Part shown: piece after piece, positions 2,817 through 46,364 of the stretch
How positions within the stretch are numbered: position 1 is the stretch's first letter
Layout: every line of letters starts with the position of its first letter
DNA from: Deltaproteobacteria bacterium
GTDB taxonomy: Bacteria; Myxococcota_A; UBA9042; PHBI01
Reading direction: 5' to 3'
Length of the DNA: 64,000 nt
NCBI GenBank assembly: GCA_016792665.1
Contig: JAEUKJ010000340.1
Location: 28,880-92,879 of the forward strand
The notes under the pieces: model-generated
Databases searched by the model: none
What the model was told of the DNA's origin: nothing
The model's input: only the letters and a program-made list of their open reading frames with translations
Program-made: the position numbers and the translations under genes

Positions 2817-3976
2817 GAGCGCTCCGTGAGAGGCATGGCGGGCTGCGGGGAGACGCCGTGTCCACGACGCGCGACGAGCGCCGCGATGATGCCGAGCTCG
2901 AGCCAGCCGTGGGCCAGCGCGGCCAGCAGGTAGACGTTGCGCACCTGACCGGCGTCGAAGGCGAGCGCAGCCGCGGGGATGGCCAGGGTCAGGACCACGA
3001 GGAGACCAAAGCCGATGGCGCCGAAGTCGCCGCGCACGCGCGCGAGTGAGCGCTCGAAGGTCGGCGGGGCGACACGCGGATCGAAGCGCTGCGGGATGAG
3101 GCGGAGCCAGATCGCGTAGTGCAGCGACTGTGCGAAGGCGTAGGTCGCGACCAGGCGCAGCGCGAGGTCGAGCTCGAGGCCCGGCGCGAGCGTGTCGGCC
3201 ATCTCGATGAGGCCGAAGTGGCCGACGTCGCCTTGGCTCGCGTGGTCGAGGAGGACCCCATCGAGCGCGCCCGAGAGCGGCAGCGCGAGCACCGCCAGGT
3301 AGCTGCCGGCGATGAGGAAGAGCGCGCGGCGCGAGACCTCGACGCGGAAGAGCCAGAGCCAGAGGCCGAAGGCCACGAAGTTGTGGACGTGCGCGATGAT
3401 GACCAGCGAGGTCCAGGGCGAGAGCAACGCGACCGCGGTGAGCGCCAGCACGACCGCGAAGGCCAGGCCCTTCTGGCGCGGATTGCCGCGCGGCGCGAGC
3501 GCGACCCCGCCCAGCATCGCCGCCGAGCCGAGGGCAATCTCGAGCTCGGCGTAGAACGGCGCCCCGAGCGTCGAGAGCACGCGCAAGAATGTCATCAGCA
3601 GAAGCGGCCCGAGGAGCAGGACGAGCCCGCGCCGACCCAGCGGCAGCGGCGGGCGCACGAGCAGGTAGCGGATATCGCTGGCGACGTGCGGGACTCCGAG
3701 GACGAGCGGCCCGAGGAGGAGCAGCCAGACCGGGGCGAGGACTGTCAGCGTGAGGGCCACGGCCATGTGGCCGAGCGCGAGAGTGGTGAGTCGGAGGCCG
3801 CGGTGGCGGATGCAGGCGCGTCCGAAGGCGGTCTTGGCGGAGAGGCGCCAGATCGGGCGCCGGACCGCATCGAACGGGGCCGCGAGCCAGGTGATGAGCG
3901 GCGAGCGGCGCGGCGCGGGCTCACCCGCGGGCGGGCGATCGTCCCAGGGCAGGATGCGGGTCGCGGGCGCCGTCAT
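2813..3976 (-). CDS. polytopic membrane protein (~387 aa, >=8 TM), hypothetical
   Basis: ORF 2813..4066. The ATG at 3976 (MTAPATRIL) forms an ATGA overlap with the amidase stop, which argues for that start. Multiple hydrophobic helices; HVHNFVAFG segment. Function unknown. Confidence 0.6.
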   Translation of the reverse strand: MTAPATRILPWDDRPPAGEPAPRRSPLITWLAAPFDAVRRPIWRLSAKTAFGRACIRHRGLRLTTLALGHMAVALTLTVLAPVWLLLLGPLVLGVPHVASDIRYLLVRPPLPLGRRGLVLLLGPLLLMTFLRVLSTLGAPFYAELEIALGSAAMLGGVALAPRGNPRQKGLAFAVVLALTAVALLSPWTSLVIIAHVHNFVAFGLWLWLFRVEVSRRALFLIAGSYLAVLALPLSGALDGVLLDHASQGDVGHFGLIEMADTLAPGLELDLALRLVATYAFAQSLHYAIWLRLIPQRFDPRVAPPTFERSLARVRGDFGAIGFGLLVVLTLAIPAAALAFDAGQVRNVYLLAALAHGWLELGIIAALVARRGHGVSPQPAMPLTERS

Positions 3977-6900
3977 CGGGCGCCTCCAGAACGCATGCGC
4001 CGAACCACGCGCCAGAGAGAGAGCCAGACCACGAGCTGCGAGACGAGCATGGAGACAGAGACGCACGAGCCGTCGAAACGCGAAGCGGCGCAGCCGTCGG
4101 TCTCGCGCACGCGCCCCGACAAGGTCCGCGTCGGGCGGCCCGGGGTCGCATTGCTTGCGGTGTCGGTGCCGTCGACGACCTCGACGTCGGGCTCGGGGGT
4201 CGGCTCGACCTGCTCGGGTCCGGGATCGGGGTCCGGGTCTCCGCAGGCGAGATCCGCCCAGGTGTCACGGCCCGGCAGGTCGGCGAGCAGGCTCGTCACC
4301 AGCGCGTTGCGTGCCTCGTCGGGATAGAGGGCCTCCAGCGGCACGCCGAAGACGAGCGCGGTGGCGCCGTCGGGGCGCGCGAAGCGAAGGCCGGCCGTGC
4401 CACCGAGGCCACCGGCATAGCTCGCGATGGGGGTCGCGCCCGCGACCGGCGTGAGCACGTCGGGGAAGGCGACGTCGTACGCGTGCGTGCCGTCGTCGAT
4501 GGCGAGCTGGGCGCCGTCGTGAGTGATGGCGTAGGTTCCCGCGCTGTCCGCGCCATAGGCGGCGCCGAGGCCGGCGAGGAAGGCGCGGTCCGAGGCCGAG
4601 CCCTTGAAGTCGAGGTCCCAGGCGAGCTCGGCACCTGACAAGAGCAGCGCGCGTCCCGGGCCGAGCCATGCGGAGAGGAGCCCCTGCTCGAGGTCGGAGA
4701 GCGTCTCGTCGACGGTGGACTCCTCGCCGAGGGCCCAGTCGACCAGGCCATAGGGGTCGAGCGCGACGGCCCGCGACGCGACCGCGGTCGCTTCCGCGGA
4801 GTCGAAGGCGAGCCCCGCCGCGGCCAGCGCGAAGGCATGCGGCACGAGCGCATCGAAGCGGTTCATCGCGTCCAGCCGCATGCGCAAGACCGTCCCGAGG
4901 TCGTAGGCCGAGAGGTCGTCCTGCGGCGCAAGGCCGGAGTCGAGCCGATAGAAGCCGTGGACCAACAGGGCGCGCGGGCGCGTCGTGCTGCAGGCGGGCA
5001 GGACCGCGACGACCGGGGTCGACAGCGACTCGCCGCCGGCGTTGACGGCCGTGACGCGGAAGAAGGTCGGCGCGTCGGGCGCGAGGTCGGTCAGCGCGAG
5101 GACGGGGTCGACGGTCTCGGTACCGTCGTCGAAGGCCCGGCCATCCTGGCTTCGATAGACGCGGAAGGCGCTGGCGAGGTCACCGCCGCCTTCGCGATCG
5201 GTGTCGGCGGCCCGCCACGTGAGCCGCGCCTCGCCGGGCCCGGTGCCGACCACCGCGAGCTCGCGGGGAGGCTCGGGCAGGAGGCGCACGGGCTGGCCGT
5301 CGCGGTCCGCGAAGTAGCGCACGAGGCCCTGGTAGAACGCGCGCGCGGCGACCTGGCGCATGCGTGGCTCTTTCAATTGGGCGGCGTCCGACGCGGTCGC
5401 GTGGAAGGCGACCTCGCAGAGGACTGACGGCATCTCGGGGTTGTGGTTCTTGTTCAGCTCGCCGAAGTAGGCCGAGTACACGCCGCGGTCGCGCCAGGTC
5501 GGATCGACGGCGGCGCGCAGGTCGGCGACGACCTCGTCGTGGACGAAGCGCGCGAGCTTGTCGCTGCCGGCGACGCCCGTGAAGTCGTAGGTCCCGTCGG
5601 GCGGGTTCGGTCCATAGACGTACGTCGAAGTACCGACGCCGGGTGAGGGCGCGTTGGTGTGCCAGGCCAGGTAGACCGCGTCCTCGCCGGCCTCGTTCTG
5701 CCAGGCCGCGTAGCGCGAGCGCGAGCCGACGTCGTCGCTGCGCTCGTCGGCCGTGTAGCGATAGACCGACTGCGGGGCGCCGGTGAACTGGATGTGGTAG
5801 CGGGCGTTCTCTTCCCAGCGCGGGCGGCCCGAGAGTGGCGAGGACGCGGGGCCCGAGCCGTTGCCGCGCGCGGCGTCGCCCATGCCGCCGCCCACGCGGA
5901 TCGCGTCGGCGCTGAGGGTCGCAGCGGCGCTGGCAGCATCGTTCCAGAGCTCGACGCGGCCCCCCGTCGCGAAGCGGAAGCGGCCGAGCGCGAACCAGGT
6001 CCCCCCATGGCGGCGCTGGTTCACGCGCACGTGCGAGGCTCCGCCGTCGTGGAAGACGACATAGTGCGCGTCGGTGGCACGCGAGGGGTCGGCGACCCAC
6101 GCGGCGTAGACCGTGTAGTCGGATCCGCGCGGCACTTCGAACGAGAACGTCGCCTTCGCGGTCGGTTCGCCGAGGGTCGCGTCGACCACGCGGCTCGCCC
6201 CGAGCGCGAAGGGATTCTCGCCTTCGACAAGTGGCGCCAGGCCGCCGCGATAGCCGCTCCCGAGGTCGCGCCAGGCCCCTGTTTCGCCATAGGTTCCGAC
6301 ACCTTCCCCGCGAGTGGCGCCCGCCGTGTCGGCGTCGACGATGACCATCGCGCGCTGGAGGTCGCGCTCGCGGACCGTGAAGACGGTGGCACCCGCGTTC
6401 TCGAGGTAGGTCACGAGAAGCTGATCGATCACCTCGGCCGAGACGAGGTCCTCGACGATGCCGTTGGTGTTGCCGCGCTGGGTCGCCCAGCGACCGAGCT
6501 CGGGCGTCCACGAGAACCCGTGCCCCGCCGACAGATAGACGACCTTGCCGCGCAGCGCGCCGTCGCGACGACGTCCGGGCTCGGCCGCGATGACGGCCTT
6601 GCCGACGCGTGGCGGCGCGACCGCGGGTCCGGCGCGAGGGTCCTCGTAGGGTCGTCGCGGCACCGGAGACACGGGCGGTAGCAGCGCCGCGAGCGGCACC
6701 CACGCGCCGGCCTGCGACACCCAGGGCAGGACGGAGCGGACCTCGAGCCCGGCTTCGTCGGCATCGCTCAGCGCCGCGCGCACGAGCGCTTCGAGGCCCT
6801 CCTCGGTGACAGCGGCCTCACCCGCAAACACGAGGTAGAGGTCGAGGCGCTCGCCGTCGAGCTCCGACGCGATGACCGTCGCGCCATCGGGCAGCGCCCA

Positions 6901-7038
6901 CGCGAGGGGTGGCGCCGGGGCGTGCGACCACGCAGGCGCGGCAAGCAACGTCGCCGTGACGAGGGCAAGGAGCTGCGCAGAGGCTTTCACGGGCGCGAAC
7001 ACGCGCCGAAGCTCACACGGAACCGCGGCTCGACGCAA
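3973..7038 (-). CDS. secreted N-acetylmuramoyl-L-alanine amidase (Amidase_3 with a large insert) plus fibronectin type III domain plus C-terminal extension ending in a Cys/TM/Arg tail (MYXO-CTERM-like)
   Basis: 1021 aa. Signal peptide ASAQLLALVTATLLAAPAWSHA. Amidase_3 halves GKVVYLSAGHGF...TVFTVRERD and NKNHNPEMPSVLCEVAFHATASDAAQL. FN3 segment GEARLTWRA...FRVYRS...FFRVTAVNAGGES. C-terminal tail GCAASRFDGSCVSVSMLVSQLVVWLSLWRVVRRMR. Confidence 0.8.
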   Translation of the reverse strand: MRRAAVPCELRRVFAPVKASAQLLALVTATLLAAPAWSHAPAPPLAWALPDGATVIASELDGERLDLYLVFAGEAAVTEEGLEALVRAALSDADEAGLEVRSVLPWVSQAGAWVPLAALLPPVSPVPRRPYEDPRAGPAVAPPRVGKAVIAAEPGRRRDGALRGKVVYLSAGHGFSWTPELGRWATQRGNTNGIVEDLVSAEVIDQLLVTYLENAGATVFTVRERDLQRAMVIVDADTAGATRGEGVGTYGETGAWRDLGSGYRGGLAPLVEGENPFALGASRVVDATLGEPTAKATFSFEVPRGSDYTVYAAWVADPSRATDAHYVVFHDGGASHVRVNQRRHGGTWFALGRFRFATGGRVELWNDAASAAATLSADAIRVGGGMGDAARGNGSGPASSPLSGRPRWEENARYHIQFTGAPQSVYRYTADERSDDVGSRSRYAAWQNEAGEDAVYLAWHTNAPSPGVGTSTYVYGPNPPDGTYDFTGVAGSDKLARFVHDEVVADLRAAVDPTWRDRGVYSAYFGELNKNHNPEMPSVLCEVAFHATASDAAQLKEPRMRQVAARAFYQGLVRYFADRDGQPVRLLPEPPRELAVVGTGPGEARLTWRAADTDREGGGDLASAFRVYRSQDGRAFDDGTETVDPVLALTDLAPDAPTFFRVTAVNAGGESLSTPVVAVLPACSTTRPRALLVHGFYRLDSGLAPQDDLSAYDLGTVLRMRLDAMNRFDALVPHAFALAAAGLAFDSAEATAVASRAVALDPYGLVDWALGEESTVDETLSDLEQGLLSAWLGPGRALLLSGAELAWDLDFKGSASDRAFLAGLGAAYGADSAGTYAITHDGAQLAIDDGTHAYDVAFPDVLTPVAGATPIASYAGGLGGTAGLRFARPDGATALVFGVPLEALYPDEARNALVTSLLADLPGRDTWADLACGDPDPDPGPEQVEPTPEPDVEVVDGTDTASNATPGRPTRTLSGRVRETDGCAASRFDGSCVSVSMLVSQLVVWLSLWRVVRRMRSGGAR

Positions 7039-7252
7039 AGGCAGCGCGCGGCGGACGGACTTTTGAGCATTGGCGGCCGCGAACGCGAATACCGAGCGCC
7101 CGCTCGTTGCGCACCGTCACCGCGCCTGCGCAGCCGAGCAAAATCAGAATGTTGCAGCGTCTTCACGCGATGGCACGCGTCTTGAGTGCTTCGGCTGGCA
7201 GCGTCCCGGCGCGCCCCCCAACACGGCGCGCCAACGCGAAAGGAGTCCTCCG
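7039..7252. promoter_or_regulatory. divergent promoter region between the amidase operon (-) and the gtrA/GT2 genes (+)
   Basis: 214-bp non-coding gap with a locally AT-richer stretch (caaaatcagaatgttgcagcgtcttcacg). A GAAAGGAG RBS precedes the ATG at 7253. Confidence 0.35.
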
Positions 7253-12212: not shown

Positions 12213-12365
12213 GCAGCTCTCTCCTGCCGGCCTCCCGAGGCCCCGCGGCGCGAGGCTGACCACCTGGGTACGCGGGCCTCGACGCGCTCCCGGATGCCCT
12301 CCCGCACGGCCCCTGTCAAGCTGGTCGCGGTTGCGCCGAACGACCCCATGCGCTACGCCCTCGCC

Positions 12366-13184
12366 ATGAACGCGCGCCTCGCCTCGCTTACGACCTCGCT
12401 CTGCGCTGCCTTCGTGGCGGCGTGCTCACCGACCCCGCGGCCGACCGTGCTCGAGGCGTCGACCACCGCGTCGAGCCGCGAGAAGAAGGCGGACGGGACA
12501 CCGGTCGACGACCCCACCGTGGTCGACCCCGAGGCGGTCACGACCCCGGCTCTCGGCGCCGTCGAGCCGCTGGTGGTCGTCACGATCTTCACCGACTACC
12601 AGTGCCCGAACTGCAAGCGCATGCACGACCTCGCAGCGCGCCTCGTCGATCGCTGGCCGGACGAGGTCCAGGTCCAGTTCCGCCAGGTGCCGCTGGCCAT
12701 CCACCCGCTGGCGCGACAGGCCGCCAACGCCGCCCTGGCCGCGCACCGACAGGGCCGCTTCGCGTGCATGCACGCGGCACTGGTGCGTTCGCGCCTGGAC
12801 TGGACCGGCTTCGACGCGCCCCACTTCGATCGGTTCCTGGAAGAGGTGCTCGTCCCCCATTGCGGGCTCGACGCAGCGCGCTTCGCTCGCGACCTCGTCG
12901 ACCCGCGCATCGCGACCAAGGTGCAGGAAGACTGGAAGCTCGCGGGCGACGCCGAGGTCCCCGGCACCCCGACCGTGCTCGTCGATGGCCTGCGCGCGCG
13001 TCTGTGGCCACGGGCCGGCGTCGAGCCGCAGCTGCTCCTGAACGCGCTCGTGCGCCGGAACCTGCGCGAGGCCCGCGAGCAGCTCGCCCATGGCACCAAG
13101 CGCATCGAGCTGCCGGCGCTCCGCCTCTACGGCAACACCGGCGACGAAGAGCTCACGCTGCGCCTCCTCGACGCCGAGCGCTGA
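12366..13184 (+). CDS. DsbA-family thiol:disulfide oxidoreductase lipoprotein
   Basis: This is the real C-terminal third of the artefactual ORF 10788..13184. Lipoprotein signal MNARLASLTTSLCAAFVAAC. CxxC active site DYQCPNCK; cis-Pro region GTPTVLVDG. Confidence 0.8.
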   Translation: MNARLASLTTSLCAAFVAACSPTPRPTVLEASTTASSREKKADGTPVDDPTVVDPEAVTTPALGAVEPLVVVTIFTDYQCPNCKRMHDLAARLVDRWPDEVQVQFRQVPLAIHPLARQAANAALAAHRQGRFACMHAALVRSRLDWTGFDAPHFDRFLEEVLVPHCGLDAARFARDLVDPRIATKVQEDWKLAGDAEVPGTPTVLVDGLRARLWPRAGVEPQLLLNALVRRNLREAREQLAHGTKRIELPALRLYGNTGDEELTLRLLDAER

Positions 13185-13195: not shown

Positions 13196-16100
13196 TCAGC
13201 GGATGTTCACGACCGCCGAGGTCGCGGGGCGAATCGGGACCAGGTCGAGCCCGACCAGGACGACCTCGACGCGATGAGGCCCGGGCGAGAGGCCCGTCAA
13301 CGTGACCGGTGAGGCCGTCGCCACCGCACGCACCCGCCCATCGACCATGACCAGCGCCGCGCCGCGCCCGACCTGGGGCCGGCCGCGCAGTCCGACCGGG
13401 TCGAGGGTGAGCCCGCTCACCGTGAAGGCGACCGCGACCGTCCCGTCGACCAGCGTGTTGGGCGTCGGGGCCGTGATGGCGACGGTCGGGAGGGCGCCGC
13501 CGACGCGCAGGGGCGACTGCGCGATCACCGCAGGCACGTAGGGCGTGAGGTCGCCCTTCAGGAGCTCGACCTCCATGACGTGCTGGCCGGCAGCGACCGG
13601 CCCGAAGGTGCCGGTGTCGGCCGCGATGAGCGCCGCCTGGCGCCCGTCGACCTTGACCGAGACCCAGCCCGTGGTCGGGCCCAGGGTCGCCCCGGTGACG
13701 ACCACCTCGAGCCCCACCGCGGGCCCATACCAGGTGTTCTCCGGGCGGGGCGCGCGCACCGACAGGCGCGGACCCGCGCTCACGAGGATCGGCAGCTCGG
13801 CCTTGGCCGCCGGCACGACCCGCGATCCATCGCGGTGCCAGAGCTCGGCGATCAGGGTCTGCGCCCCGCTCGGCATGGCCGGCAAGGGGACCGTCGCGCT
13901 CGCGTAGGGACCCCACACGAGGTCGGGCCTGGCCCGCGTCGTCAGCGTCCAGAGCCCATCACCAGGCACCGCCGGGCCGAGCCCGAGGGCCCCGTCGAGC
14001 GAGAAGCCGACGACGCCGATCGTGACCGTGGCCCCGGGCAGCAGCGTCGCGTTCGGCAGCGGCGCGACCCACGAGACCCGCGGCGGCGTGACCCCGACGA
14101 CCTCGAAGCGCACCGTGTCGGCGACTCCGTTGGGCAGGTTCGCGCCGGCCGCGTTGAGCGGCATCGTGACCGCCTCGTGCGGCCCCTCGGCGAGCGGCGG
14201 CACCGTGAAGAGGCCCGGCACGCCGACCTCGACGAGCACACCATCGAGCCACAGCCCGACGAGCCCTTCGGTCGGCAGGTTCTCGCCGACCAGGTCGAAG
14301 GTCGGCTCGGCCCCATAGACGAAGCCGCCGTCCTCGGGCGTGACGATGGCGACGTGCGGCGCGGTGTCGACCTGGACCTGCACGCTCGCCGGCACGGTGC
14401 CCGCGATGGCGCTGTGATCGTTCTCGTGCAGCGTCACCTTGATCGTGTGGAGCCCGGCACTCGCGATGGTGACCGGGAAGCGCGTCGTGGTCTCGAAGCC
14501 CTGGTAGACGTCGTCGACGAACACGTGCACGTGCCCCTCGCCAGGCACCGCAGCGGCGCCCGCCTTGTCGACGACGCTCAGGTTGTCGACCTCGACCTGG
14601 ACGTCGAACGGGGCCCCGGTCACGCGGTCCCCGGGGCCAGGCGCGACGATGCGGACGCGCGGGGTCGGGTCGTACTCGAGGTCGATGATGTGCCCCACCG
14701 CCCCGGTGACAGGGGTGTGGTTGCTCCGGTGCAGGAATGCCTCGAGGGTGTGCGTGCCCTTGACCAGCGGCGTCAGCTTGGTCGTCGCGGGGTCGAGGAT
14801 GGCCCACGGGTTCGTGTAGAAGTCCTGATAGACACTATCGATGAACAGGTGGAAGTGGCCGCGCAGGTCGGAGATCTCGCCGACCGGGATGAGCTCGAAG
14901 TTGTCGACCGAGACCGCCACCGCGAACGGGCCGCGCCCGATCCTGGCCCCGTCGGCAGGGCTCTCGACATGGATGGTCGGGCGGTCATCGACGACGACCG
15001 TGACCAACGCTTCGACCGGCGGCACGACCTGCGAGTGGTTCTCGTAGTGGAGGGCCACGAGGACCTCCCAGGTGCCCGCGGAGTCCGCCGTGAGCTCGAA
15101 GGTCTCGGAGAGGAAGAAGCCCTGGTACACGAAGGCGCCGCCGCCCTGCTTGCGCATGAAGGCGTGGAAGTGGCCGCGTCCGGGCACCGGGTCCGCGTTC
15201 GGGGCCAAGATGGTCTGCGACAAGGTGAAGTCCTCGAACGCGACCGCCACCGGGAAGCGCTTGGGGACGACCTCGCCCGGCCGCGGCGACAAGATGCTGA
15301 CCGAGGTCTCGACCGCGACCACCTCGACCGTGCGCTTGGCCTCGACCGCGGGCGTGAGCGGCGTGCCCGCGTTGTCGACGAGGCGTGCCGTGAGCTGGTG
15401 GGTGCCCGGCTGCAACGAGACCTCGGCCTGGGTCTGGGTGAGGCGATCGCGCGCGACGACGCCGTCGACCAGGAGCTGCCAGCCGCCCTGGCCGGCGACC
15501 AGGGGGCCGGGGATGGCGCCCGCCGTGAAGACGAAATAGTGAGGCAGGACAGCGACTTTCACGGCACCCTCGGCCACGCGCGGGCTGGTCGGCAAGACCA
15601 TGTCCAGGCCGGGCGGAAGGATGCGCGTCTCGAAGTCGACGGTCGCGACGACCGGGGGATTGAGGGCTTCGTTGTCGTAGCTGCGGAGCTCGACCTCGAG
15701 GCGATGCTCGCCCGCGGCGAGCCCGCTGAGAGACGCGGTGGTGCCGGTGAGAGCGCTCGCGACGAGGTTGCCATCGAGGGTCGCGCGCCAGGTGCCGTGG
15801 CCTGGCACGAGGTCGCCGTCGAGTACGAAGCGCTCGACCTCGAGGGCGATCAAGAGGCGCCCGCCATCGACCACCTGCGCCGCCTCGGGAGAGACGATGC
15901 GCAGCACCGGAGGCAGCGCGACCGAGAAGCTGACGCTGGCCGGAGCCGCCCCGGGCCAGGCCACGCCGTCGGCATCGACCAGGGTCGCGACCAGGGTGTG
16001 AGCGCCCGCGGACAAGGTCGCCAAGGTGCCGCTCGCGTTGGCGACCACGGTCGGCTCGCCCGCGTCGATCGCCAGCGCGACGCGCCCCTGGCGCGGACCG

Positions 16101-16723
16101 GTCGGCGCGGCGCCCGCGGCCAGCAGCGTGAAGTCCGTGACGGCGAAGGCATAGGTCACGGGCTCGCCGACCCCGAAGAAGGCGTCGTTCGCGGGGGCCG
16201 TCAGGGCAAGGGCCGGGACGAGGCGCGTCACGGTGACAGCGACTTCGTCCGAGACCGGAGGCGTCAACGGCGCGCCAGCCTCGACCAGTTCGGCGCGCAC
16301 CGTCGCGGCGCCCGCGGGTGCCCTCAAGACCGCGCTGGATGCGGCGACGACGACGCTCGACGCGGCCGCCTCGGCGCCGTCCGGCCACACCGAGAAGCGC
16401 ACCGAGAGACCGCGCGCGAGCGGCTCACCGACCAGCGTTGCCTCGACGACGATCCAGTCGCCATCGACGCTCGCCCTCGCACTCGGCTTCGTCACGCTGA
16501 TGCCGAGCTCGCCGCTCGTGTCGGGCGTGACCGCGGTATCGCTGCTCGTGTCGGTGACCTGCGTGTCGGGCGGCGGCAGGTTCTTCACCGCCTCCAGGCC
16601 GCCGTCGAAGCCGCTGCACGCCGCGAGCGCAAGCCACCCCAGGCACGCCAGCACGCCGTGAGCACCCACCCTGCCCCATGGGTCCGAAGCCCGACCCGCG
16701 GCCCGCGACCCGATGCCGTTCAT
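13196..16723 (-). CDS. large lipoprotein (~1175 aa) built of about 9 tandem ~100-aa beta-sandwich repeats, three of which carry a conserved P-x-G-x-G-H-[FV]-H-x-F-hD motif (possible metal-binding, DUF4399-like)
   Basis: Only the C-terminal 1175 codons of ORF 13196..17779 are real; upstream of the ATG at 16723 the frame is an R/G-rich artefact. Lipoprotein signal ...LACLGWLALAACSG. Repeat units contain GRGHFHAFM, LRGHFHLFID and GEGHVHVFVD. A further repeat has GGWQLLVDG. Confidence 0.75.
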   Translation of the reverse strand: MNGIGSRAAGRASDPWGRVGAHGVLACLGWLALAACSGFDGGLEAVKNLPPPDTQVTDTSSDTAVTPDTSGELGISVTKPSARASVDGDWIVVEATLVGEPLARGLSVRFSVWPDGAEAAASSVVVAASSAVLRAPAGAATVRAELVEAGAPLTPPVSDEVAVTVTRLVPALALTAPANDAFFGVGEPVTYAFAVTDFTLLAAGAAPTGPRQGRVALAIDAGEPTVVANASGTLATLSAGAHTLVATLVDADGVAWPGAAPASVSFSVALPPVLRIVSPEAAQVVDGGRLLIALEVERFVLDGDLVPGHGTWRATLDGNLVASALTGTTASLSGLAAGEHRLEVELRSYDNEALNPPVVATVDFETRILPPGLDMVLPTSPRVAEGAVKVAVLPHYFVFTAGAIPGPLVAGQGGWQLLVDGVVARDRLTQTQAEVSLQPGTHQLTARLVDNAGTPLTPAVEAKRTVEVVAVETSVSILSPRPGEVVPKRFPVAVAFEDFTLSQTILAPNADPVPGRGHFHAFMRKQGGGAFVYQGFFLSETFELTADSAGTWEVLVALHYENHSQVVPPVEALVTVVVDDRPTIHVESPADGARIGRGPFAVAVSVDNFELIPVGEISDLRGHFHLFIDSVYQDFYTNPWAILDPATTKLTPLVKGTHTLEAFLHRSNHTPVTGAVGHIIDLEYDPTPRVRIVAPGPGDRVTGAPFDVQVEVDNLSVVDKAGAAAVPGEGHVHVFVDDVYQGFETTTRFPVTIASAGLHTIKVTLHENDHSAIAGTVPASVQVQVDTAPHVAIVTPEDGGFVYGAEPTFDLVGENLPTEGLVGLWLDGVLVEVGVPGLFTVPPLAEGPHEAVTMPLNAAGANLPNGVADTVRFEVVGVTPPRVSWVAPLPNATLLPGATVTIGVVGFSLDGALGLGPAVPGDGLWTLTTRARPDLVWGPYASATVPLPAMPSGAQTLIAELWHRDGSRVVPAAKAELPILVSAGPRLSVRAPRPENTWYGPAVGLEVVVTGATLGPTTGWVSVKVDGRQAALIAADTGTFGPVAAGQHVMEVELLKGDLTPYVPAVIAQSPLRVGGALPTVAITAPTPNTLVDGTVAVAFTVSGLTLDPVGLRGRPQVGRGAALVMVDGRVRAVATASPVTLTGLSPGPHRVEVVLVGLDLVPIRPATSAVVNIR

Positions 16724-16740
16724 GCCTGCCTGCAGCTCCG

Positions 16741-19374
16741 TCACGGTCCCCCTCCGATCAGCGTCGGCACCCCATCGCGCACGAACGTCCCCACCCACGC
16801 CGCGAACTGTCGCTTCGCCCGCGCGTCGCGGAAGAGCGCGAAGTGCCCATCGTATCCATCGGGCTGCACCTGGATCATTACCGCGGTCGCCGCCCCTCCC
16901 GGCTCGGTCAGGTTCGCTTTGACCGGCGGCTCGAGCTTCTGGAACGCGGCGCCGAGATCCTTCAGCACCGGGTTCGCGACCGCGAGGCGCAGGGCGCGCG
17001 CAAAGGTCTCGATGGTGGCCGGCGGCGTGTAGGTGTCGCCCAGCCCATAGACATGCAGCACGTGCTGGACGCCGAGGGCGGCCGCGCGCTCGACCGTCGC
17101 GGCCCGCGCGTGGTTCAGCGGGTCGACCGGATCGAAGAGCCCCTGGATGAGGGTCAGCGCCGGGTGCATGTCGCCGAGCGTCGCGGGCACGAAGCCGTCG
17201 AGCTCCTGCAGCGCGATGGCCACCGCCTTGGGCGCATCGACCGGACTCTTCTTGGCGAGCAGCGACAGCACCAGCCCCGCCCCGGCACCCGACCACACGA
17301 CCGCCCCGATCCCCGGCTCCCAGGCGGTTGCGAGCGGCCCGGTCGTCGCGCCTTGCGAGTGCCCGACATAGAGCACCCGGGTCGGGTCGAAGCGGATCGC
17401 CTCGCCGGTCGGGCTCTTGTCGGCGGCCAGCGACCAGGTCCCCAGCACGCGCACCAGCGCGAAGAGATCGGCCGCCCCCTGGACGAGGTTGCCGCGCGCC
17501 GCCAGCGGGTTCGCGAAGTTGTAGAAGAGGCCCTCGGGATCGAGGTCCACCCCGCGCCGCTTGCCGTGCATGGGGCCGTCCCATCCGACCGTGGCCACGT
17601 GTAGCGGGGCCGCCTCGGGAGGGCTGTCGGGCAGGGTCGCGGGGTCGATGTCGGCCAGCACGGCGCCGACGTCGCGCACCGCCGAGCGGAAGCTGCCGCC
17701 GGTCCCGTGCCCGTAGATCGCCACCGGCCAGCCGCCGCTCGGCATCGTGCCGTGCTTGGGGATCGTCATCGAGACACATACGTCCTCGGTGCCCTGCAGG
17801 ATCGGTCGCCCTGCATCATCGAGCACGAGACCGCCCCCGTCCTCGGGACGCAGGTACGGACGTGTGCCAGCCTGCACCTTCGGCAGCGGCAAGAGCAGGT
17901 GCAGCTCGTAGAAGGCGTCGTCCTCCTCGAAGCACCCGCGCACGTGGGCGTCCCCGGTCAGCCCGTCATCGCAGGGCGACACGACCCCGGCCGCGCACTT
18001 CGTCAGCGCCTTGGCCTGGGGCATCGGGCTCGCCGCGATCGCCTCGCGGACCTTCGGCATGAGCTCGGTCGAGCGCTGCGTCGTGAAGACCGCGGCCGCG
18101 ATGACCCGCCCCTTCGGCAGGGCCGCGCCCTCATCGGCGAGGTAGTCGCGCAGCGGCTGATAGCGATCCCACGCCACGCCCAGCTCGGGCTCGCTCGGAC
18201 GGGCCTCTGCCAACATCGCCTGCATGTCCGCGTCGGCCCCGAACAGCGCCCCGTCGCGGGTCTTCACGCCCTCGCCGAGGATCACCGCATAGGTCGTCCC
18301 CGGCAGGAGCGGCGCATACCAGGCCGGGTGCACGCCGACGTAGCGCGGGCACACGTACTTCGACCCGCCGTCGGTCACGAAGTACCCGAAGTCCGGGGTC
18401 CACTTGTACTGTGGCGAAGCCTTGTCGATATTGACGAAGTACAGCGTCGGCTCGCCGGGCGGTGGGTTCTGGATGCCGCCGGCCCAGATCGACCCCAGAT
18501 CGAAGCCGCGCGACAGGCGGAACAGGACGGCCGGCTCGTTCGAGAAGCCGGTCTGCACCTGCTCGGCCGCGTCGATGACCCGCGCCACCGGGTCGAAGCC
18601 GACGACGCCGGGCCCGGGGGTCGGGAAGCCGCTGAGGTCGACGCGCCCGTTCTTCATGCGGATGTCGTTCGGGAAGGGCAGCCGGAAGAAGTCGCTCGCT
18701 GTGCCCGCGCGTGGCACCTCGAAGTGCACGACCGGCGGGTCGACGAGGTCCTCGTTCTCGCACACGACGCCCGACCACGGCCTCAACCCGAAGACCGGCG
18801 ACCCGGCCGCGCACGCACCGTTCGCGTCGCAGACGAGGCCCGCCTGGCAGTCCTGGAGGGTCGCGCACGCGGCGTCGATGTCGCCCGTGCCGGCCGCGAC
18901 GCACGATCCGGAGAACCCCAGCGACAGGCACACGAGCCCGGCCTCGCAGTCCCCAGCAGTCGCGCAGGTCGTGCCGACGGCGCCGTCCCCGGCCGGGGTG
19001 CAGACGCCGCTCAGCGCGCAGTAGAGGCCGTCGGCGCACTCGGTGCTGGTCACGCAGGGCTGGTTCTGGGGCGTGACGCCCGCGGCCTGGCAGGTGCCCG
19101 CGACGCACTGAAGCCCGAAGCGGCAGTCGGACAGGGCACCGGCGGTCTGGCACGCCTCGCCGGTCTTCTTGCCGCCGGTCGGGTCGCGCGTGATGTCGCC
19201 GATGTCGAAGCTGTCGAGGTTGATGTCGAGGGCCGACTTGAAGAAGTCCCGACATCCCGTGAGCGCCGCGACGCACGCGACCGCGACCCCCAGCCGTGAG
19301 AGCCATGACCTGGACTGGCCACGCCCGACCTCAACCGAGCCCTCGTGTCCGTCGCGCGCGTTCGCCTCGCCCAT
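16741..19374 (-). CDS. secreted lipoprotein alpha/beta-hydrolase (lipase/esterase) with four N-terminal Cys-rich repeats
   Basis: ORF 16741..19458. ATG at 19374. Lipobox LTGC. Four ~25-aa C-x6-C-x5-C-type repeats (CQTAGALSDCRFGLQCVAGTC...) resemble the Myxococcus cysteine-rich repeat. Nucleophile elbow YVGHSQGATTG (G-H-S-x-G) and oxyanion-region IYGHGTGGS. The stop lies 18 nt before the next gene's ATG. Confidence 0.75.
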   Translation of the reverse strand: MGEANARDGHEGSVEVGRGQSRSWLSRLGVAVACVAALTGCRDFFKSALDINLDSFDIGDITRDPTGGKKTGEACQTAGALSDCRFGLQCVAGTCQAAGVTPQNQPCVTSTECADGLYCALSGVCTPAGDGAVGTTCATAGDCEAGLVCLSLGFSGSCVAAGTGDIDAACATLQDCQAGLVCDANGACAAGSPVFGLRPWSGVVCENEDLVDPPVVHFEVPRAGTASDFFRLPFPNDIRMKNGRVDLSGFPTPGPGVVGFDPVARVIDAAEQVQTGFSNEPAVLFRLSRGFDLGSIWAGGIQNPPPGEPTLYFVNIDKASPQYKWTPDFGYFVTDGGSKYVCPRYVGVHPAWYAPLLPGTTYAVILGEGVKTRDGALFGADADMQAMLAEARPSEPELGVAWDRYQPLRDYLADEGAALPKGRVIAAAVFTTQRSTELMPKVREAIAASPMPQAKALTKCAAGVVSPCDDGLTGDAHVRGCFEEDDAFYELHLLLPLPKVQAGTRPYLRPEDGGGLVLDDAGRPILQGTEDVCVSMTIPKHGTMPSGGWPVAIYGHGTGGSFRSAVRDVGAVLADIDPATLPDSPPEAAPLHVATVGWDGPMHGKRRGVDLDPEGLFYNFANPLAARGNLVQGAADLFALVRVLGTWSLAADKSPTGEAIRFDPTRVLYVGHSQGATTGPLATAWEPGIGAVVWSGAGAGLVLSLLAKKSPVDAPKAVAIALQELDGFVPATLGDMHPALTLIQGLFDPVDPLNHARAATVERAAALGVQHVLHVYGLGDTYTPPATIETFARALRLAVANPVLKDLGAAFQKLEPPVKANLTEPGGAATAVMIQVQPDGYDGHFALFRDARAKRQFAAWVGTFVRDGVPTLIGGGP

Positions 19375-19464: not shown

Positions 19465-19728
19465 CTACGTGCGCGTGCGCGCGGGCCTCAGCGCGAGTCG
19501 CCGCCGCGCCGGCACCTGCACGGGCTCGCCGGTCGCGGGGTTCTTGGCGAGGCGCGGGCCCAGCGCACGGGCCTCGAAGGTGCCGAAGCCGCGGATGGCG
19601 ACGGAGCGGCCGGCCGCGAGCTCGGTCGGGATGACGACGTCGAAGAGGGCGTCGACCACGCGCGCGACCTCGTCTTTGCCGAGGCCCGTGTGGCGCGCGA
19701 GGCTCTGGATCAGCTGGGTCTTGTTCAT
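19465..19728 (-). CDS. HU/IHF-family DNA-binding protein (87 aa)
   Basis: ORF 19465..19842. The internal ATG at 19728 gives MNKTQLIQSLARHTGLGKDEVARVVDALFDVV...RGFGTFEARA...NPATGEPVQVPA, which is canonical HU. The C-terminal tail is unusually Arg-rich. Confidence 0.8.
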   Translation of the reverse strand: MNKTQLIQSLARHTGLGKDEVARVVDALFDVVIPTELAAGRSVAIRGFGTFEARALGPRLAKNPATGEPVQVPARRRLALRPARTRT

Positions 19729-19859: not shown

Positions 19860-20555
19860 ATGGTCGACCAGCGCCCCGAACCCCGTCCCCGTCGCCGCTT
19901 CCGGCTCCCCCGACTGCCGCGTCTGCGCGGGCGCGGCGCCTCGAAGGCCAAGAAGGAGAAGCGGCGTCCGCTCTCGGAAGAGATCAAGAAGCTCCCGAAC
20001 CTGCTGACGCTGGGCCGCGTGGCCCTCATCCCGCCGGTCATGTACTTCCTCCTGCTCGACACGAAGCTCGGCAACTTCGTGGCGACGCTCTTGTTCTCGG
20101 TCGCGGCGATCACCGATTGGCTCGACGGCTACCTCGCGCGCAAGCAGGGCCTCGAGTCGCTCCTCGGCAAGTTCCTCGATCCCCTGGCCGACAAGCTCAT
20201 CGTGCAGGCCGTGCTGATCATCGCGGCCGAGCTCGGGCGCATCCCAGGCTGGTTCGTGGTGCTCTTGCTGTCGCGCGAGATCGCTATCACCGGGCTCCGC
20301 GCCATCGCATCCTCGGAGGGGCTCTCGATCGACGTCGCCCAGTCGGGCAAGATGAAGACCGCGCTGCAGCTCGTCGGCCTCGTCGCGCTCATCCTGAACG
20401 AGCGCTTCACGATCGACTTCCTCATCACCGAGGCGTCCATCGACTTCAACGTGGTCGGCGTCGTGCTCCTCTCGCTGAGCATGGTCTTCTCGCTGCTCTC
20501 GGCCTTCACCTACTTCCGCGGCTTCGCCCAGGCGGTCGACGCACGCTCGAAGTGA
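19860..20555 (+). CDS. pgsA: CDP-diacylglycerol--glycerol-3-phosphate 3-phosphatidyltransferase (CDP-alcohol phosphatidyltransferase)
   Basis: Signature D-x2-DG-x2-AR-x8-G-x3-D-x3-D (DWLDGYLARKQGLESLLGKFLDPLADK). Membrane protein. The start may lie downstream of the basic N-terminal extension. Confidence 0.85.
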   Translation: MVDQRPEPRPRRRFRLPRLPRLRGRGASKAKKEKRRPLSEEIKKLPNLLTLGRVALIPPVMYFLLLDTKLGNFVATLLFSVAAITDWLDGYLARKQGLESLLGKFLDPLADKLIVQAVLIIAAELGRIPGWFVVLLLSREIAITGLRAIASSEGLSIDVAQSGKMKTALQLVGLVALILNERFTIDFLITEASIDFNVVGVVLLSLSMVFSLLSAFTYFRGFAQAVDARSK

Positions 20556-20633
20556 CGCCCGCGACCTCGCCCCATGCTTGACCGCCCGCGCGCATCGCTG
20601 CTACGCGGGGGACCCCGTCCGAAGGAGCCTCTC

Positions 20634-21734
20634 ATGCGTCTTGGAACAAGCCTGTCGAAGTCCTGGACCATCGCGCTCCTCGTGCCGTTCGCGGGTCTCG
20701 CCGCATGTGACGGTGCGGCCACGGAAGACGACGGGCTCGACACCATCACGGCCGGCATCATCGCCGAGGGCTCGCCCGAGGCGCTCGGCATCCTCGGCTT
20801 CCTGAACGCCGTCACGACCACCGTGACCACGCTCGATATCACCGTCGGCCTCGACGCCCGCGCCGCCAAGGCCCTCGTCGCGCACCGCGACGGCCCCGAC
20901 AAGGCCTTCGGCACGGCCGACGACGACCGCTTCGGGTCGGTCCTCGAGGTCGACTCGGTCGCCTATGTCGGCACCGCGGCCCTCGACAAGCTGCTCGCGT
21001 ACTGCCGCAACAACAACCTCATCCCGCAGCCCAGCGACGTCCTCGGCACCTACCGCGACGTCCTCTTCACCATCGACGAGGGCACCAAGACCCTGGCGCT
21101 GGTCAACACCGCGACGCTCGAGCGCCTCGATGCGCTCATCGATGTGCGCGCCGCCAAGAACATCATCGCGGCCCGCCCCATCGCGTCGGTGCTCGACCTC
21201 TCGAAGATCACCTACGTCGGCACCAACGCGCTGAAGGTCCTGAAGGCCGCCGCCCTCGCCGGCCCGACCCAGCCGCCCGGCGCGACCGTCGCGGCCCACC
21301 TCGCCACGGCCTCGAACGGCCTCTGGCACACCAGCGAGTCGGACTACCCGTTCGTCGTCGTGCGCATCGCCGCCCCGCCCACCGGCTCGGCCGCGCTGAC
21401 CACGGCCAACATCAAGTCGGTCCTGGCCTCGGTCTACATGAATCGCCCCGAGGAGCCGACGCTTGCCCAGCGCGACGTCGAGCTCGTGACCCTCGACAGC
21501 TTCTTCGACCGCTACACGGTCGTCCAGGGCTGGTGGGAGGACGACCAGCGCGTCCAGGCCCCGGCGTTCTCCGCGCTGCGCCAGCTCCTCGAGCGCGAGC
21601 TCACCGACGTCAAGGTGTTCCGCCTCGGCCGCCGCTCGGGCAACTATCTGATGGGCGCCATCGACGTCTTCATCCTGGGCCGCACCTCGGATGGCGAGGT
21701 CGTCGGCATCAGCACGATCTCCGTCGAGACCTGA
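20634..21734 (+). CDS. hypothetical lipoprotein with two ComEA-like helix-hairpin-helix motifs
   Basis: ORF 20574..21734. ATG at 20634. Lipobox FAGLAAC. HhH repeats LNAVTTTVTTLDITVGLDARAAKALVAHRDG and VNTATLERLDALIDVRAAKNIIAARP. The C-terminal ~170 aa have unknown function. Confidence 0.6.
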   Translation: MRLGTSLSKSWTIALLVPFAGLAACDGAATEDDGLDTITAGIIAEGSPEALGILGFLNAVTTTVTTLDITVGLDARAAKALVAHRDGPDKAFGTADDDRFGSVLEVDSVAYVGTAALDKLLAYCRNNNLIPQPSDVLGTYRDVLFTIDEGTKTLALVNTATLERLDALIDVRAAKNIIAARPIASVLDLSKITYVGTNALKVLKAAALAGPTQPPGATVAAHLATASNGLWHTSESDYPFVVVRIAAPPTGSAALTTANIKSVLASVYMNRPEEPTLAQRDVELVTLDSFFDRYTVVQGWWEDDQRVQAPAFSALRQLLERELTDVKVFRLGRRSGNYLMGAIDVFILGRTSDGEVVGISTISVET

Positions 21735-21977: not shown

Positions 21978-22742
21978 ATGCCGAAGCCCCTCGTCCAGCG
22001 CCACCTCGTCGCAGACCTGTCGCCGTCCCTCTGGGACGAGGTCTGGGAGTTCGCGTCGCGCTTCAACGAAGGCTCGCGACAGGCCTTCGAGGCGAGCCTC
22101 CGCGCCAAGCGCTTCCTCGTGACCCTCCGTGAGCGGCCGTCCAAGCGGCTCATCGGCATCGGCGCGATCGACGTTTACCCCTTCGACGGGCCGCGTGCAG
22201 ACGCCCACGGCCGACCCGGCCGATGCATCGTCATCTACACCGGCAACCTCGCCTTCGAGCCCGGCCTCCGCGGATTCAGCCTGGTCCAGCGCATCGGCTT
22301 CAAGTGCTACCTCGAGGCCCGCCTGCGCCACCCGCTCACGCCCGTCTGGCTCTTCTACGACACGTTCAGCTACAAGAGCTACCTCATGCTCGCCAACAAC
22401 TTCGGGACCTACTGGCCGCGCTTCGACCGCGCGACACCACCCGACGTCCTGGACTTCATCGACCGCCTCGGCCAGCACCGCTATGCGGCCGGCTGGGACG
22501 TCACGCGCGGCCTCTGTCGCGGCGGAGAGAGGCGCCTCCGCTCGGGCGTCGCGGACGTCACGCCCGACCTCCTCGACAACCCGTTCATTCGCTACTTCGC
22601 GGCGCGCAACCCCGGCTACGCCAACGGCGACATGCTGGCCGTGGTGGCTCCACTGAACGTCTCGAACTGGCAAGCCGTGTGGCGGCGGTTCTGGCAGCGG
22701 AAGAAGCGCAACGCCTCGCCCGACCTCAAGGTCGATCGCTGA
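21978..22742 (+). CDS. hypothetical cytoplasmic protein (254 aa), possible acyltransferase-like fold
   Basis: ORF 21768..22742. The first ATG after the Pro/Arg-rich junk is MPKPLVQRH. No recognisable catalytic motif. Convergent with moaDE, overlapping it by 17 bp. Confidence 0.45.
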   Translation: MPKPLVQRHLVADLSPSLWDEVWEFASRFNEGSRQAFEASLRAKRFLVTLRERPSKRLIGIGAIDVYPFDGPRADAHGRPGRCIVIYTGNLAFEPGLRGFSLVQRIGFKCYLEARLRHPLTPVWLFYDTFSYKSYLMLANNFGTYWPRFDRATPPDVLDFIDRLGQHRYAAGWDVTRGLCRGGERRLRSGVADVTPDLLDNPFIRYFAARNPGYANGDMLAVVAPLNVSNWQAVWRRFWQRKKRNASPDLKVDR

Positions 22743-23421
22743 CCCAGCTCGCCCCGTCGGGCCCGACCTCGCGCTTCCAGATCGGCACCTCGCGCTTCAA
22801 CAGTTCCAAGAGCTCGCGCAGCGCCTCGAAGGCGGCCGCGCGGTGCGCACTGCCAGCTGCCGCGATGACCGCGACGTCGCCGACGACCAGCCTCCCCACG
22901 CGGTGATGGATCGCCAGCCGCGTGCCCGGCCACTGCGCCTCACACGCGGCCACGATCTCCGCGAGCTTGGTCTGGGCCATCGACGGATAGGCCTCGTACT
23001 CGAGCTCGGTCACCGCTCGTCCGCGCGCGTGGTCTCGCACCACCCCCGAGAACGTCAGCACCGCCCCGTGCCCCGGCCCACCGACGAGCCCCGCCAACGC
23101 CGCCGCCCGCGCATCGTCCAGCACCTCGGGCCCCAGCGCGACCTTGGCCACACCCGCCCCGTGCTCGTCGCCCGACCCGCCCGCGACCGGCGGGATCAAG
23201 ACCAGCTCGCGCCCCTCGCCGACCGCGGCGTCCAACGCCACGAACTCACCGTCGAGGGCGACCCTCACGCTCGGCATCAGCACGCCCAACGCCGGATGCC
23301 GTTCCACAATCGCGAGCACCACCGCGCCCACGGTCGCGTCGTCGGCGACCTCGAAGGTCTCGCTCGCGACCCCGACCTTCTCCCTGACATGCGCGAAGTA
23401 CAGCGTCGCTATCGTCTTCAT
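22726..23421 (-). CDS. moaDE: molybdopterin synthase MoaD-MoaE fusion protein
   Basis: N-terminal MoaD with a ThiS/ubiquitin fold ending in ...IPPVAGG. C-terminal MoaE motifs LTFSGVVRD, AIHHRVG and PIWKRE. Confidence 0.8.
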   Translation of the reverse strand: MKTIATLYFAHVREKVGVASETFEVADDATVGAVVLAIVERHPALGVLMPSVRVALDGEFVALDAAVGEGRELVLIPPVAGGSGDEHGAGVAKVALGPEVLDDARAAALAGLVGGPGHGAVLTFSGVVRDHARGRAVTELEYEAYPSMAQTKLAEIVAACEAQWPGTRLAIHHRVGRLVVGDVAVIAAAGSAHRAAAFEALRELLELLKREVPIWKREVGPDGASWVSDRP

Positions 23422-23633
23422 CGCCCCATCCTATCGACCCTCCCGCCCCGCGTCACCTGCGCCCCATGCGGCGTCGTCACGCGCAAAGTATCGACGCCGG
23501 TCTTTGACCTTTGCCGTTCAAGCTCGTAAATGATCGTTTTCGCACACCCCGGCACCCAATGCGTATCCGTGGTCGCGATCCCCCAGTGGGCGCGACTCGG
23601 ACCGCGGCGTACCCGCATATCCAAGGCGATGAC
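23422..23633. promoter_or_regulatory. divergent intergenic region between moaDE and the PAS kinase (promoters; possible 5'-UTR element of moaDE)
   Basis: 212 bp with a locally AT-richer core (caaagtatcgacgccggtctttgacctttgccgttcaagctcgtaaatgatcgttttcg). A Moco riboswitch was considered but could not be confirmed by eye. Confidence 0.3.
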
Positions 23634-43228: not shown

Positions 43229-44014
43229 TCAGGGCGCGGCTGGCGCGTCGCCCCCCGCGTCCCCGCCGCCGCCCGCGCTGGGGTCCTCGGCGTCCTCGGC
43301 CGGCGTCGCCGTGCCGGCCGCCGCGAGCAGCCTCCGCCAGTCGCCGACCAACGACTCGCGCGCCTGCCGGGTCGCCGGCGCGTCGCCCTTGTGCACCTTG
43401 TCGACGACACGCGCGAAGGTCGCCCAGGTCTCCAGCGCGTCCCGCCGCGCCGCGAACAGCTCGGGCGAGCTCGGGTTTCCGAGCTTGTCGAGGCGCGCCT
43501 GACGCACCTTCTGCAGGCTCGCGCGCAAGGCCGTCGCGGCGGCGGTGATCGCCGCGAGATCGCTCGCCAGCTCGGGCAGCGGTCCCGCCAGCGTGCGCAG
43601 CGCGGCCTCGACGTCGGGGCGGCGCAGACGCTCCTCGAACTTGGCGTGGTAGGCGACCTCGACCTCGAAGGGGCGGTTGATGAAGGCCAGGCCGTCGGCA
43701 TAGGCCAGGCGTAGGACCAGCGTGGCGGCCGCCGCGACCTCGGGCCGCTCGTCGTCGGCCAGCGCCGTCAGCAACCGATGGGTCTTGCGGTGGCGCCGGT
43801 CGTGCAACTTGTCGTTGTCGTTGGCCTCCTTCTGCGCGGCGGCCAGCGTGGCGTCGACCGTGCCGCCCCCCAGCTTCGTAAGGATGCGGTTGCGGGCATC
43901 CACGAGCTCGGAGACCCACGACGCGAGTCTTGGGTCCTTCAGGTGGTCGGTGAACCGGAGGGCGTTGTCGATCAAACTGGCGAGCATCTCGGCGGTGACG
44001 AGCTCGAAGGCCAT
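43229..44014 (-). CDS. hypothetical all-helical protein (261 aa)
   Basis: C-terminal part of ORF 43229..44560. The ATG MAFELVTAEML is preceded by an AAGGAG RBS. Ala/Leu/Arg-rich with a Gly/Asp-rich tail. Confidence 0.5.
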   Translation of the reverse strand: MAFELVTAEMLASLIDNALRFTDHLKDPRLASWVSELVDARNRILTKLGGGTVDATLAAAQKEANDNDKLHDRRHRKTHRLLTALADDERPEVAAAATLVLRLAYADGLAFINRPFEVEVAYHAKFEERLRRPDVEAALRTLAGPLPELASDLAAITAAATALRASLQKVRQARLDKLGNPSSPELFAARRDALETWATFARVVDKVHKGDAPATRQARESLVGDWRRLLAAAGTATPAEDAEDPSAGGGGDAGGDAPAAP

Positions 44015-44345
44015 GGGAAACTCCTTGGGTGGGGAACTACGATCGACTGTGACGAAGCTCCCACCGTCCGTCAAGAGACCCACCGAACACCGCCGAGCCC
44101 ATTGCGCCGGACGCTGCGCCTCCTCCACCCTCCCCTGGCCCCGCACCCACCCCGGGCAGGAGACACCGACCCTCGCGGAGGTCCCACTCCAACCCCAGGG
44201 ACCGCCGAGCGACCCTCCGAAGGGTCTCCGCCCCGACCCCGGGGATGGCCGACGACCCTCGGGAGCCCCGGGGGCCGTGCCGCTCGCCGGTCGCCAGCGC
44301 CACCCCGAGCGGCCAGGAGCCGGGACACGCCCCCCGACTTTTGCT

Positions 44346-46364
<2,019 letters not shown>

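Follow-up and report, generated by a model that had tools for sequence, protein, structure and literature searches.

The 64,000-nucleotide (nt) stretch of DNA from a Deltaproteobacteria bacterium analysed here (positions 28,880 to 92,879 of contig JAEUKJ010000340.1, assembly GCA_016792665.1; henceforth the window) carries on its minus strand two adjacent lipoprotein genes, A and B, the first of which codes for a chain of 11 tandem repeats of the DUF4399 type. Three central repeats of protein A (R5 to R7) preserve a histidine triad, and we put the chance that these three bind metal, with copper as the likeliest metal, slightly above even. Metal binding is favored because the His of the triad are kept or lost together across the family and because the same domain occurs in fusions with PCu(A)C and with cupredoxins. 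A metal-handling role had been suggested in the initial annotation of this DNA, and both lines, which are independent of it, lend that idea support at the sequence level.

Gene A (positions 13196 to 16723, minus strand) codes for a lipoprotein of 1175 amino acids (aa), as established from its translation, Pfam, repeat self-similarity and profile comparison, and an alignment of 13 orthologues at 47 to 58% identity, to which all statements about conservation in this protein refer. The motif GHxH occurs in it exactly three times, once each in R5, R6, and R7 (GRGHFHAFM, LRGHFHLFID, and GEGHVHVFVD), as the initial annotation had recognized; the longer pattern proposed there, P-x-G-x-G-H-[FV]-H-x-F-hD, fits R7, while R5 lacks its D and R6 its P-x-G. 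About 40 residues after each GHxH follows an H-x3-H motif. R5 (14981 to 15307) has GHFH at 15164-15175 and HYENH at 15035-15049, R6 (14663 to 14980) has GHFH at 14849-14860 and HRSNH at 14717-14731, and R7 (14360 to 14662) has GHVH at 14525-14536 and HENDH at 14414-14428, all on the minus strand. Placed on the repeat profile, all three units have His in columns 44, 46, and 83; in column 72, R6 and R7 have a further His and R5 has Trp.

In the profile columns examined, R5 has four His and R6 has five, and all nine are invariant in 13 of 13 orthologues. R5 is also the most conserved repeat of the protein, with a mean pairwise identity of 0.70 and 44 invariant columns, and R6 follows with 0.64 and 34, versus 0.45 to 0.60 in the other repeats. 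Because these His are invariant at such divergence and lie in the two most conserved repeats, the His of R5 and R6 are evidently under selection. The initial annotation had named a lack of His conservation across orthologues as what would speak against its proposal; for R5 and R6 we found the reverse. The AlphaFold2 (AF2) model of R6, for which 33 His-type repeats were used, is an eight-strand beta-sandwich (predicted local distance difference test [pLDDT] score of 96.6) with GHxH on strand 40-47 and H84 and H88 at or just past the end of strand 75-85. The former (strand C) begins where the latter (strand F) ends, so that the four His should meet at one pole of the domain; from the secondary structure and the usual immunoglobulin (Ig)/fibronectin type III (Fn3) topology, the His of R5 to R7 would gather at one end of each domain.

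Pfam places protein A as a whole in DUF4399 (PF14347; 66.7 bits, E value of 2.4e-18, gathering cutoff of 28), which bears out the earlier description of the repeat as DUF4399-like, and gives weaker matches to Big_7, BiPBP_C, PEGA, and DUF6130. By this score, protein A is a new member of a catalogued family that is already known but uncharacterized; in the literature DUF4399 appears only in passing, with one paper calling its functional characterization "scarce," and a literature search for PF14347, IPR025512, and DUF6130 found nothing. When we searched the His-type repeat profile against 1.84 billion cluster representatives, 2689 proteins were found at an E value of 1e-3 or lower (628 at 1e-10 or lower); they are DUF4399 proteins by Pfam, and many are arrays of 2 to 10 copies. 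In the 148 top-ranking proteins, the domain consensus reads G-H-x-H-[VLI]-[YF]-[VL]-D-G ... G-x-H-x-L ... N-N-D-H, with His at columns 44, 46, 72, and 83 in 90%, 81%, 87%, and 81% of the domains, respectively, and the fourth His, that of H-x3-H, occurs in only 16% of family domains. Of 573 family domains, 463 have both His46 and His83, 88 have neither, and 22 have only one of the two, counts that are inflated by sequence relatedness. The joint retention or loss of His44, His46, and His83 is the pattern expected of a composite site. The column-72 His looks structural instead, since it is retained in degenerate repeats, including most of the eight decayed units of protein A.

The features of protein A that recur in canonical DUF4399 members are GHxH, G-x-H-x-L, the late His, and the tandem arrangement itself. 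The canonical arrays P0192 (525 bits) and P0263, whose domains score about 88 bits each against PF14347, share the His of columns 44, 46, 72, and 83 and read GAGH[FM]HILVD ... PGEHTL ... FADGAH at the equivalent columns; the genomic context of P0192 (SMC, Mnh antiporter) is uninformative. Protein A departs from the family norm in that only 3 of its 11 repeats have the triad, in the additional fourth His, in single repeats that score at or below the family cutoff, and in its lipoprotein anchor and pairing with a hydrolase, which are specific to this clade. Outside the orthologues, the top match of the repeat profile was a protein of 1127 aa (P0135) from a metagenome-assembled genome (MAG) of a Candidatus Thermoplasmatota archaeon. 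It has 10 tandem repeats, all with GHxH and most with N-N-D-H; archaea therefore have arrays that are fully intact.

The link to copper came from a tblastn search of R5 to R7 against plasmids, in which the sole match was a Sulfitobacter protein of 252 aa whose annotation is copper chaperone PCu(A)C. Its N-terminal half matches PF04314 (31.9 bits, cutoff of 29.4), and its C-terminal stretch of about 90 aa reads PGEGHAHIYLNG ... LNSHDH. The same fusion is found in 120 homologous clusters of proteins of about 250 aa in Rhodobacterales (Sulfitobacter, Ruegeria, Litoreibacter, Octadecabacter, Jannaschia, and others), all of which match the repeat profile (median E value of 2.9e-12) and have His at columns 44, 46, and 83, while column 72 is mostly Tyr. 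The C-terminal domain is thus homologous to R5 to R7 and shares the triad with them, but protein A lacks PCu(A)C, whereas the fusion carries a single copy of the repeat, with Tyr at column 72. The precomputed Pfam annotation of these proteins lists PF04314 alone, and a literature search for descriptions of the PCuAC fusion returned nothing relevant. Two of the fusion genes (L014, 6551-7309, and L015, 5001-5771) are divergent from a gene for a protein of about 470 aa without a known domain, and in Octadecabacter temperatus a multicopper oxidase accompanied by a two-component system is encoded 3 kb from the fusion gene. A cupredoxin domain is present in 5 of 49 family members with multiple repeats (e.g., P0184, with five repeats and Cupredoxin_1 at 53 bits), and the MopE metal-binding motif is found together with FG-GAP repeats in 3 of 10 other members. 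Judged from these domain combinations, the association of the family with copper proteins is recurrent, not exclusive.

The remainder of protein A consists of related but degenerate units. Windowed self-BLAST showed a period of about 100 aa over the whole protein, which we divided into 11 units of 92 to 109 aa; when per-unit profiles made from the 13 orthologues were compared by hhalign, each repeat was tied to R2, R3, or R7 with a probability of at least 94%, and R5 to R7 formed a tight subgroup at 99%. The tandem beta-sandwich repeats of the initial annotation are therefore real, although their number is 11 and not about 9. Boundaries, hhalign, and the residues in the profile columns show that R1 to R4 (15308 to 16507) and R8 to R11 (13199 to 14359), all on the minus strand, lack the His triad, with the column-72 His of G-x-H-x-L kept in R2 to R4 and not in R1. 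The motif GGWQLLVDG, which had been assigned to a further repeat, is indeed present and lies in R4. In R3 (around 15770-15800, minus strand) there is an invariant P/A-G-H-G-T/S-W/F motif, whose His stands two positions upstream of the family GHxH, and the degenerate repeats are therefore not simply decayed copies.

At the N terminus, protein A has a signal peptide and the lipobox LAAC (aa 1 to 36, 16616 to 16723, minus strand), with a Cys36 that is invariant in the orthologues. The stretch just past the lipidated Cys, C-S-G-F-D-G-G-L-E-P-V (16600-16615, minus strand, aa 37 to 42), is unusually conserved, while the linker beyond it is variable; in its first part, C-S-G-F-D-G-G, the Cys, D, and both G (C43, D47, G48, and G49 of the deposited protein P0001) are invariant, and it may be a sorting or tether signal.

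These features suggest a model in which protein A would be a lipid-anchored chain of 11 Ig-like DUF4399 beta-sandwich domains in the cell envelope. Eight of the domains, having lost the hallmark His, would probably be spacers, while the central domains R5 to R7 keep a pair of His at alternating positions in one strand (G-H-x-H), a third after the long penultimate strand (N/D-H), and a fourth, lineage-specific, that gives H-x3-H. Each intact domain may bind one transition-metal ion, most probably copper, and the protein as a whole would be an elongated envelope protein with two or three metal sites, which may serve to buffer metal, to capture it, or to pass it on. Of this model, the gene structure, repeat homology, family membership, conservation and covariation of the His, domain fusions, and synteny are observed, while we infer that metal is bound, which metal it is, how the site is arranged, and any functional tie to the hydrolase. 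More tentatively, and with a probability that we place below even, the DUF4399 His-triad domain may be an unrecognized and widespread module for binding copper or another transition metal, present in about 2,700 clusters (50% identity) of bacteria and archaea, whether alone, joined to PCu(A)C or cupredoxins, or repeated up to 10 times in arrays that would act as an envelope metal sponge or relay, of which protein A would be a variant with two or three live sites between decayed spacers.

Several observations weigh against this model. In R7, at least one site His is lost in 4 of the 13 orthologues (variants LHHHH, QHHHR, and SHHQQ), so that its site has decayed there. Single repeats match DUF4399 only marginally (R4, 28.4 bits; R6, 26.2 bits over profile positions 1 to 80; R7, 18.2 bits). 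PDB sequence searches with the whole of protein A and with the repeat profile gave no significant match and no solved relative. A Foldseek search of the R6 model against PDB recovered only generic Fn3/Ig-like folds with a template modeling (TM) score of 0.62 at best, among which CopC came only at rank 42 (TM score of 0.49). Other fusions of the family have nothing to do with metals (globin, Kelch, glucose/sorbosone dehydrogenase [GSDH], fn3, DUF4382), and given such a mixture DUF4399 could be a general-purpose module. Lastly, the Ser-Asp-His mechanism of the hydrolase partner needs no metal.

The same structural data raise the question of whether protein A is purely a structural or adhesive Ig-like stalk (a spacer, fiber, or adhesin), the His of which would stabilize the fold or the interfaces between domains. 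An Ig-like beta-sandwich is indeed what the R6 model and its Fn3/Ig matches indicate for DUF4399, a family without a PDB structure, and in PDB the folds nearest to the model belong to Fn3-like linker modules of CbhA and to glycosidase accessory domains. A stalk would also agree with the weak secondary matches to Big_7, BiPBP_C, and PEGA, with the 0.45 to 0.60 pairwise identity maintained by the 8 of 11 repeats that have no triad, and with the column-72 His, which is retained without the others, so that at least one conserved His would be structural. However, His44, His46, and His83 are co-lost and co-retained over the 573 domains, the triad is invariant in the PCu(A)C-fused domain, where column 72 is Tyr, and no other repeats are as conserved as R5 and R6, three facts that point to a site and not only a scaffold. 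We therefore regard a mere stalk as unlikely.

As for the known copper proteins of the CopC, PCuAC, and cupredoxin type, R5 to R7 resemble them in being small secreted beta-sandwiches with surface His as ligands, putative ones in R5 to R7, and CopC is among the fold matches; they differ in the low TM score mentioned above, in the lack of a sequence relation, and in the ligand positions, and we do not claim membership in any of these groups.

Gene B (16741 to 19374, minus strand) codes for the partner of protein A, an 877-aa protein that was characterized from its open reading frame (ORF), an alignment of 59 homologues, an AF2 model, and Foldseek. The 59 homologues are a sample at 37 to 64% identity (alignment A3). 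Protein B begins with a signal peptide and the lipobox LTGC (aa 1 to 41, 19252 to 19374, minus strand), with Cys41 nearly invariant. Across the homologues HGTGG at 556-560, S673, D780, and H844 are invariant, which gives a Ser-Asp-His triad; S673 lies in the nucleophile elbow GHSQG (aa 671 to 675, 17350 to 17364, minus strand), of which H672, Q674, and G675 are likewise invariant. The AF2 model (pLDDT of 92.5) matched CE7 acetyl-xylan esterases (E value of 7.9e-9), dienelactone hydrolases, and the catalytic domains of prolyl oligopeptidases in Foldseek, many alpha/beta-hydrolases reaching a probability of 1.00 and none being specific; a PDB sequence search with the B profile gave no significant match. 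Protein B is therefore a lipoprotein serine alpha/beta-hydrolase, of the esterase or lipase type.

The initial annotation had called protein B a lipase and a secreted alpha/beta-hydrolase, of which the hydrolase holds good but the lipase is a guess, as the structural matches are generic and the score against TIGR03502 (VolA/Pla-1), the only hint of a family, is 38.3 bits, far from the cutoff of 383.9, and covers residues 530 to 684 only. VolA of V. cholerae is a surface lipoprotein lysophospholipase (PMC3656444). Protein B resembles this group in being a lipoprotein alpha/beta-hydrolase whose segment from HGTGG to GHSQG aligns to the profile, and differs from it by its four Cys-knot repeats, by a large extra N-terminal domain, and by structural matches to esterases and peptidases of a general kind.

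The hydrolase would sit on an N-terminal region knotted by disulfides, which consists of four 4-Cys repeats (aa 75 to 188, 18811 to 19152, minus strand), recognized by their pattern, in which Cys84 to Cys188 are invariant and Cys75 nearly so. Such conservation, like that of the repeats and His motifs in the orthologues of protein A, shows that these patterns did not arise by accident. Four such repeats had been noticed before as C-x6-C-x5-C; their number stands, while each has four Cys with the spacing C-x5/8-C-x5-C-x4/5/8-C. The attribution of these repeats to a Myxococcus type was not upheld, since no such NCBIfam model matched (a scan of protein B at an E value of 1 or lower gave only TIGR03502 and a polyhydroxyalkanoate [PHA] depolymerase model). 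Scanned alone, the Cys region had DUF7107 as its best Pfam match (25.4 bits, cutoff of 24.6), and PF04706 Dickkopf_N is recorded in a few homologues of protein B.

Genes A and B are two co-oriented ORFs in frames with a high G+C content at third codon positions (GC3), which marks true reading frames here (GC3 of 0.85 to 0.95, with a local G+C content of 70 to 75%). The two-gene lipoprotein pair with 18-nt spacing described initially was borne out in its ORFs, both lipoboxes, and the gap, which applies to the ATG start of gene A. The deposited NCBI model, P0001 ("MAG: Deltaproteobacteria bacterium"), is 1182 aa long and starts at a GTG at 16744 that overlaps the stop of gene B as GTGA; as this model begins at the upstream GTG, an exact database look-up of the ATG-start protein found no match. 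With either start, the coordinates indicate that genes A and B are packed like an operon. Upstream, 90 nt from gene B and co-oriented with it, lies a gene for an HU-like DNA-binding protein of 87 aa (19465 to 19728, minus strand; PF00216, 80.1 bits), so that three co-oriented genes follow one another in the order HU-like, B, and A, and the A-B unit is possibly cotranscribed with the HU-like gene. The same arrangement of the HU-like gene upstream of B is seen in L004 and L005. Divergent from gene B is pgsA (CDP-diacylglycerol--glycerol-3-phosphate 3-phosphatidyltransferase; 19860 to 20555, plus strand; PF01066, 132 bits; TIGR00560, 150.8 bits against a cutoff of 109.1). A scan of the locus for promoters and terminators gave no signal exceeding that of shuffled controls.

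These two genes are the true upstream neighbors, and not the DsbA lipoprotein that the initial annotation had placed immediately upstream on the opposite strand. The DsbA-like thioredoxin lipoprotein gene is real (12348 to 13184, plus strand; PF01323, 49.6 bits against a cutoff of 25.6, with the motif CPNC), but it is convergent with the 3' end of gene A, with 11 nt between the stops, and thus lies downstream of the operon and outside the unit. In relatives it is 2 to 4 genes distant or absent.

Gene B is directly upstream of gene A in all contigs that extend far enough (L001, L002/3, L004/5, L009, and the window; five genomes), and pgsA is the divergent neighbor of gene B in the contigs with gene calls (L001 to L005 and the window). 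The clade-wide synteny around the pair also takes in DsbA, biotin carboxylase, GT21, and amidase genes. As the whole neighborhood is syntenic in a narrow clade, the adjacency of A and B is weak evidence of coupling. Only 14 A-type proteins were found, that of the window included, and a GTDB scan detected an A orthologue in the genomes of only two species, while the B family has more than 332 members, mostly without A. At 51% identity (L008), gene B has kept pgsA without A, and homologues at about 40% identity (L006, L007, and L011 to L013) have neither. We also considered gene A as a clean insertion, on the grounds that a 262-aa gene after B in L008 would equal a 263-aa gene after A in L004, but the two genes are not homologous.

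The co-occurrence of the pair, which the initial annotation had proposed to check, thus extends to every orthologous contig that could be checked. Its suggestion that protein A captures or presents substrate for the hydrolase, e.g., by feeding a polymeric or lipid substrate to the esterase, found no evidence, the B family being mostly without A, and is in our view quite improbable. The tight linkage (an 18-nt gap or a GTGA overlap), the invariable adjacency of B and A within the clade, and the fact that both are lipoproteins would fit such a partnership, as would lipid genes beside some B homologues, namely, FadBA and an inositol phosphatase in L013, phospholipase D (PLD) and an acyltransferase in L006, and a fatty-acid desaturase in L007, although other homologues have none. 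Against it stand the disparity between the two families, the B homologues at 51% identity or lower without A, the confinement of the adjacency to a narrow clade with a syntenic neighborhood, and the fact that no carbohydrate- or lipid-binding family was matched. The lipid genes near some distant homologues are mildly suggestive of a lipid as the substrate of protein B. The adjacency of pgsA was rejected as a further sign of this, being only weakly suggestive, since pgsA is a housekeeping gene and the contexts of distant B homologues are mixed.

It is very improbable that the intact repeats are catalytic copper centers of a superoxide dismutase (SOD)-like or oxidase-like kind, for although the Cu ligands of Cu,Zn-SOD (GFHVH) are similar to G-H-x-H on a strand in a Greek-key sandwich, cupredoxin fusions exist, and a lytic polysaccharide monooxygenase (LPMO) domain came at rank 19 of the fold search (TM score of 0.44), that match is weak, no SOD is among the top 50 structural matches, the N-terminal His brace is absent, and Pfam gave no match to any enzyme family.

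Elsewhere in the window there are other genes of note. Two giant ORFs with a GC3 of about 0.95 follow a gene for an S9 peptidase-like protein (43704-46364): the first (46365-56639, plus strand) codes for 3424 aa with a PPC domain, and the second (56599-63999, plus strand) codes for more than 2467 aa with a right-handed beta-helix and NosD-like repeats (PF13229, 215 bits). A plus-strand gene at 20574-21734 codes for a protein with a helix-hairpin-helix region and, at the C terminus, a NuiA nuclease-inhibitor domain (PF07924, 87 bits), and at 22726-23430 (minus strand) there is an apparent MoaD(ThiS)-MoaE fusion in one ORF (PF02597, 56 bits; PF02391, 117 bits). Finally, the gene at 3973-7116 (minus strand) codes for 1047 aa with the domains Golvesin_C, Amidase_3, and fn3; the same gene occurs close to the locus in L004 and so belongs to the synteny seen across the clade.

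Taken alone, the locus is ordinary, with two hypothetical lipoproteins in a handful of Myxococcota MAGs. Its value is as a pointer to DUF4399, a large family in which co-varying His and fusions to PCu(A)C and cupredoxins lead to a testable hypothesis, that of a new His-based site for copper or another metal on an Ig-like scaffold. If this is true, an annotation would become available for thousands of "hypothetical" envelope proteins, and bacterial periplasmic copper trafficking would gain a component.

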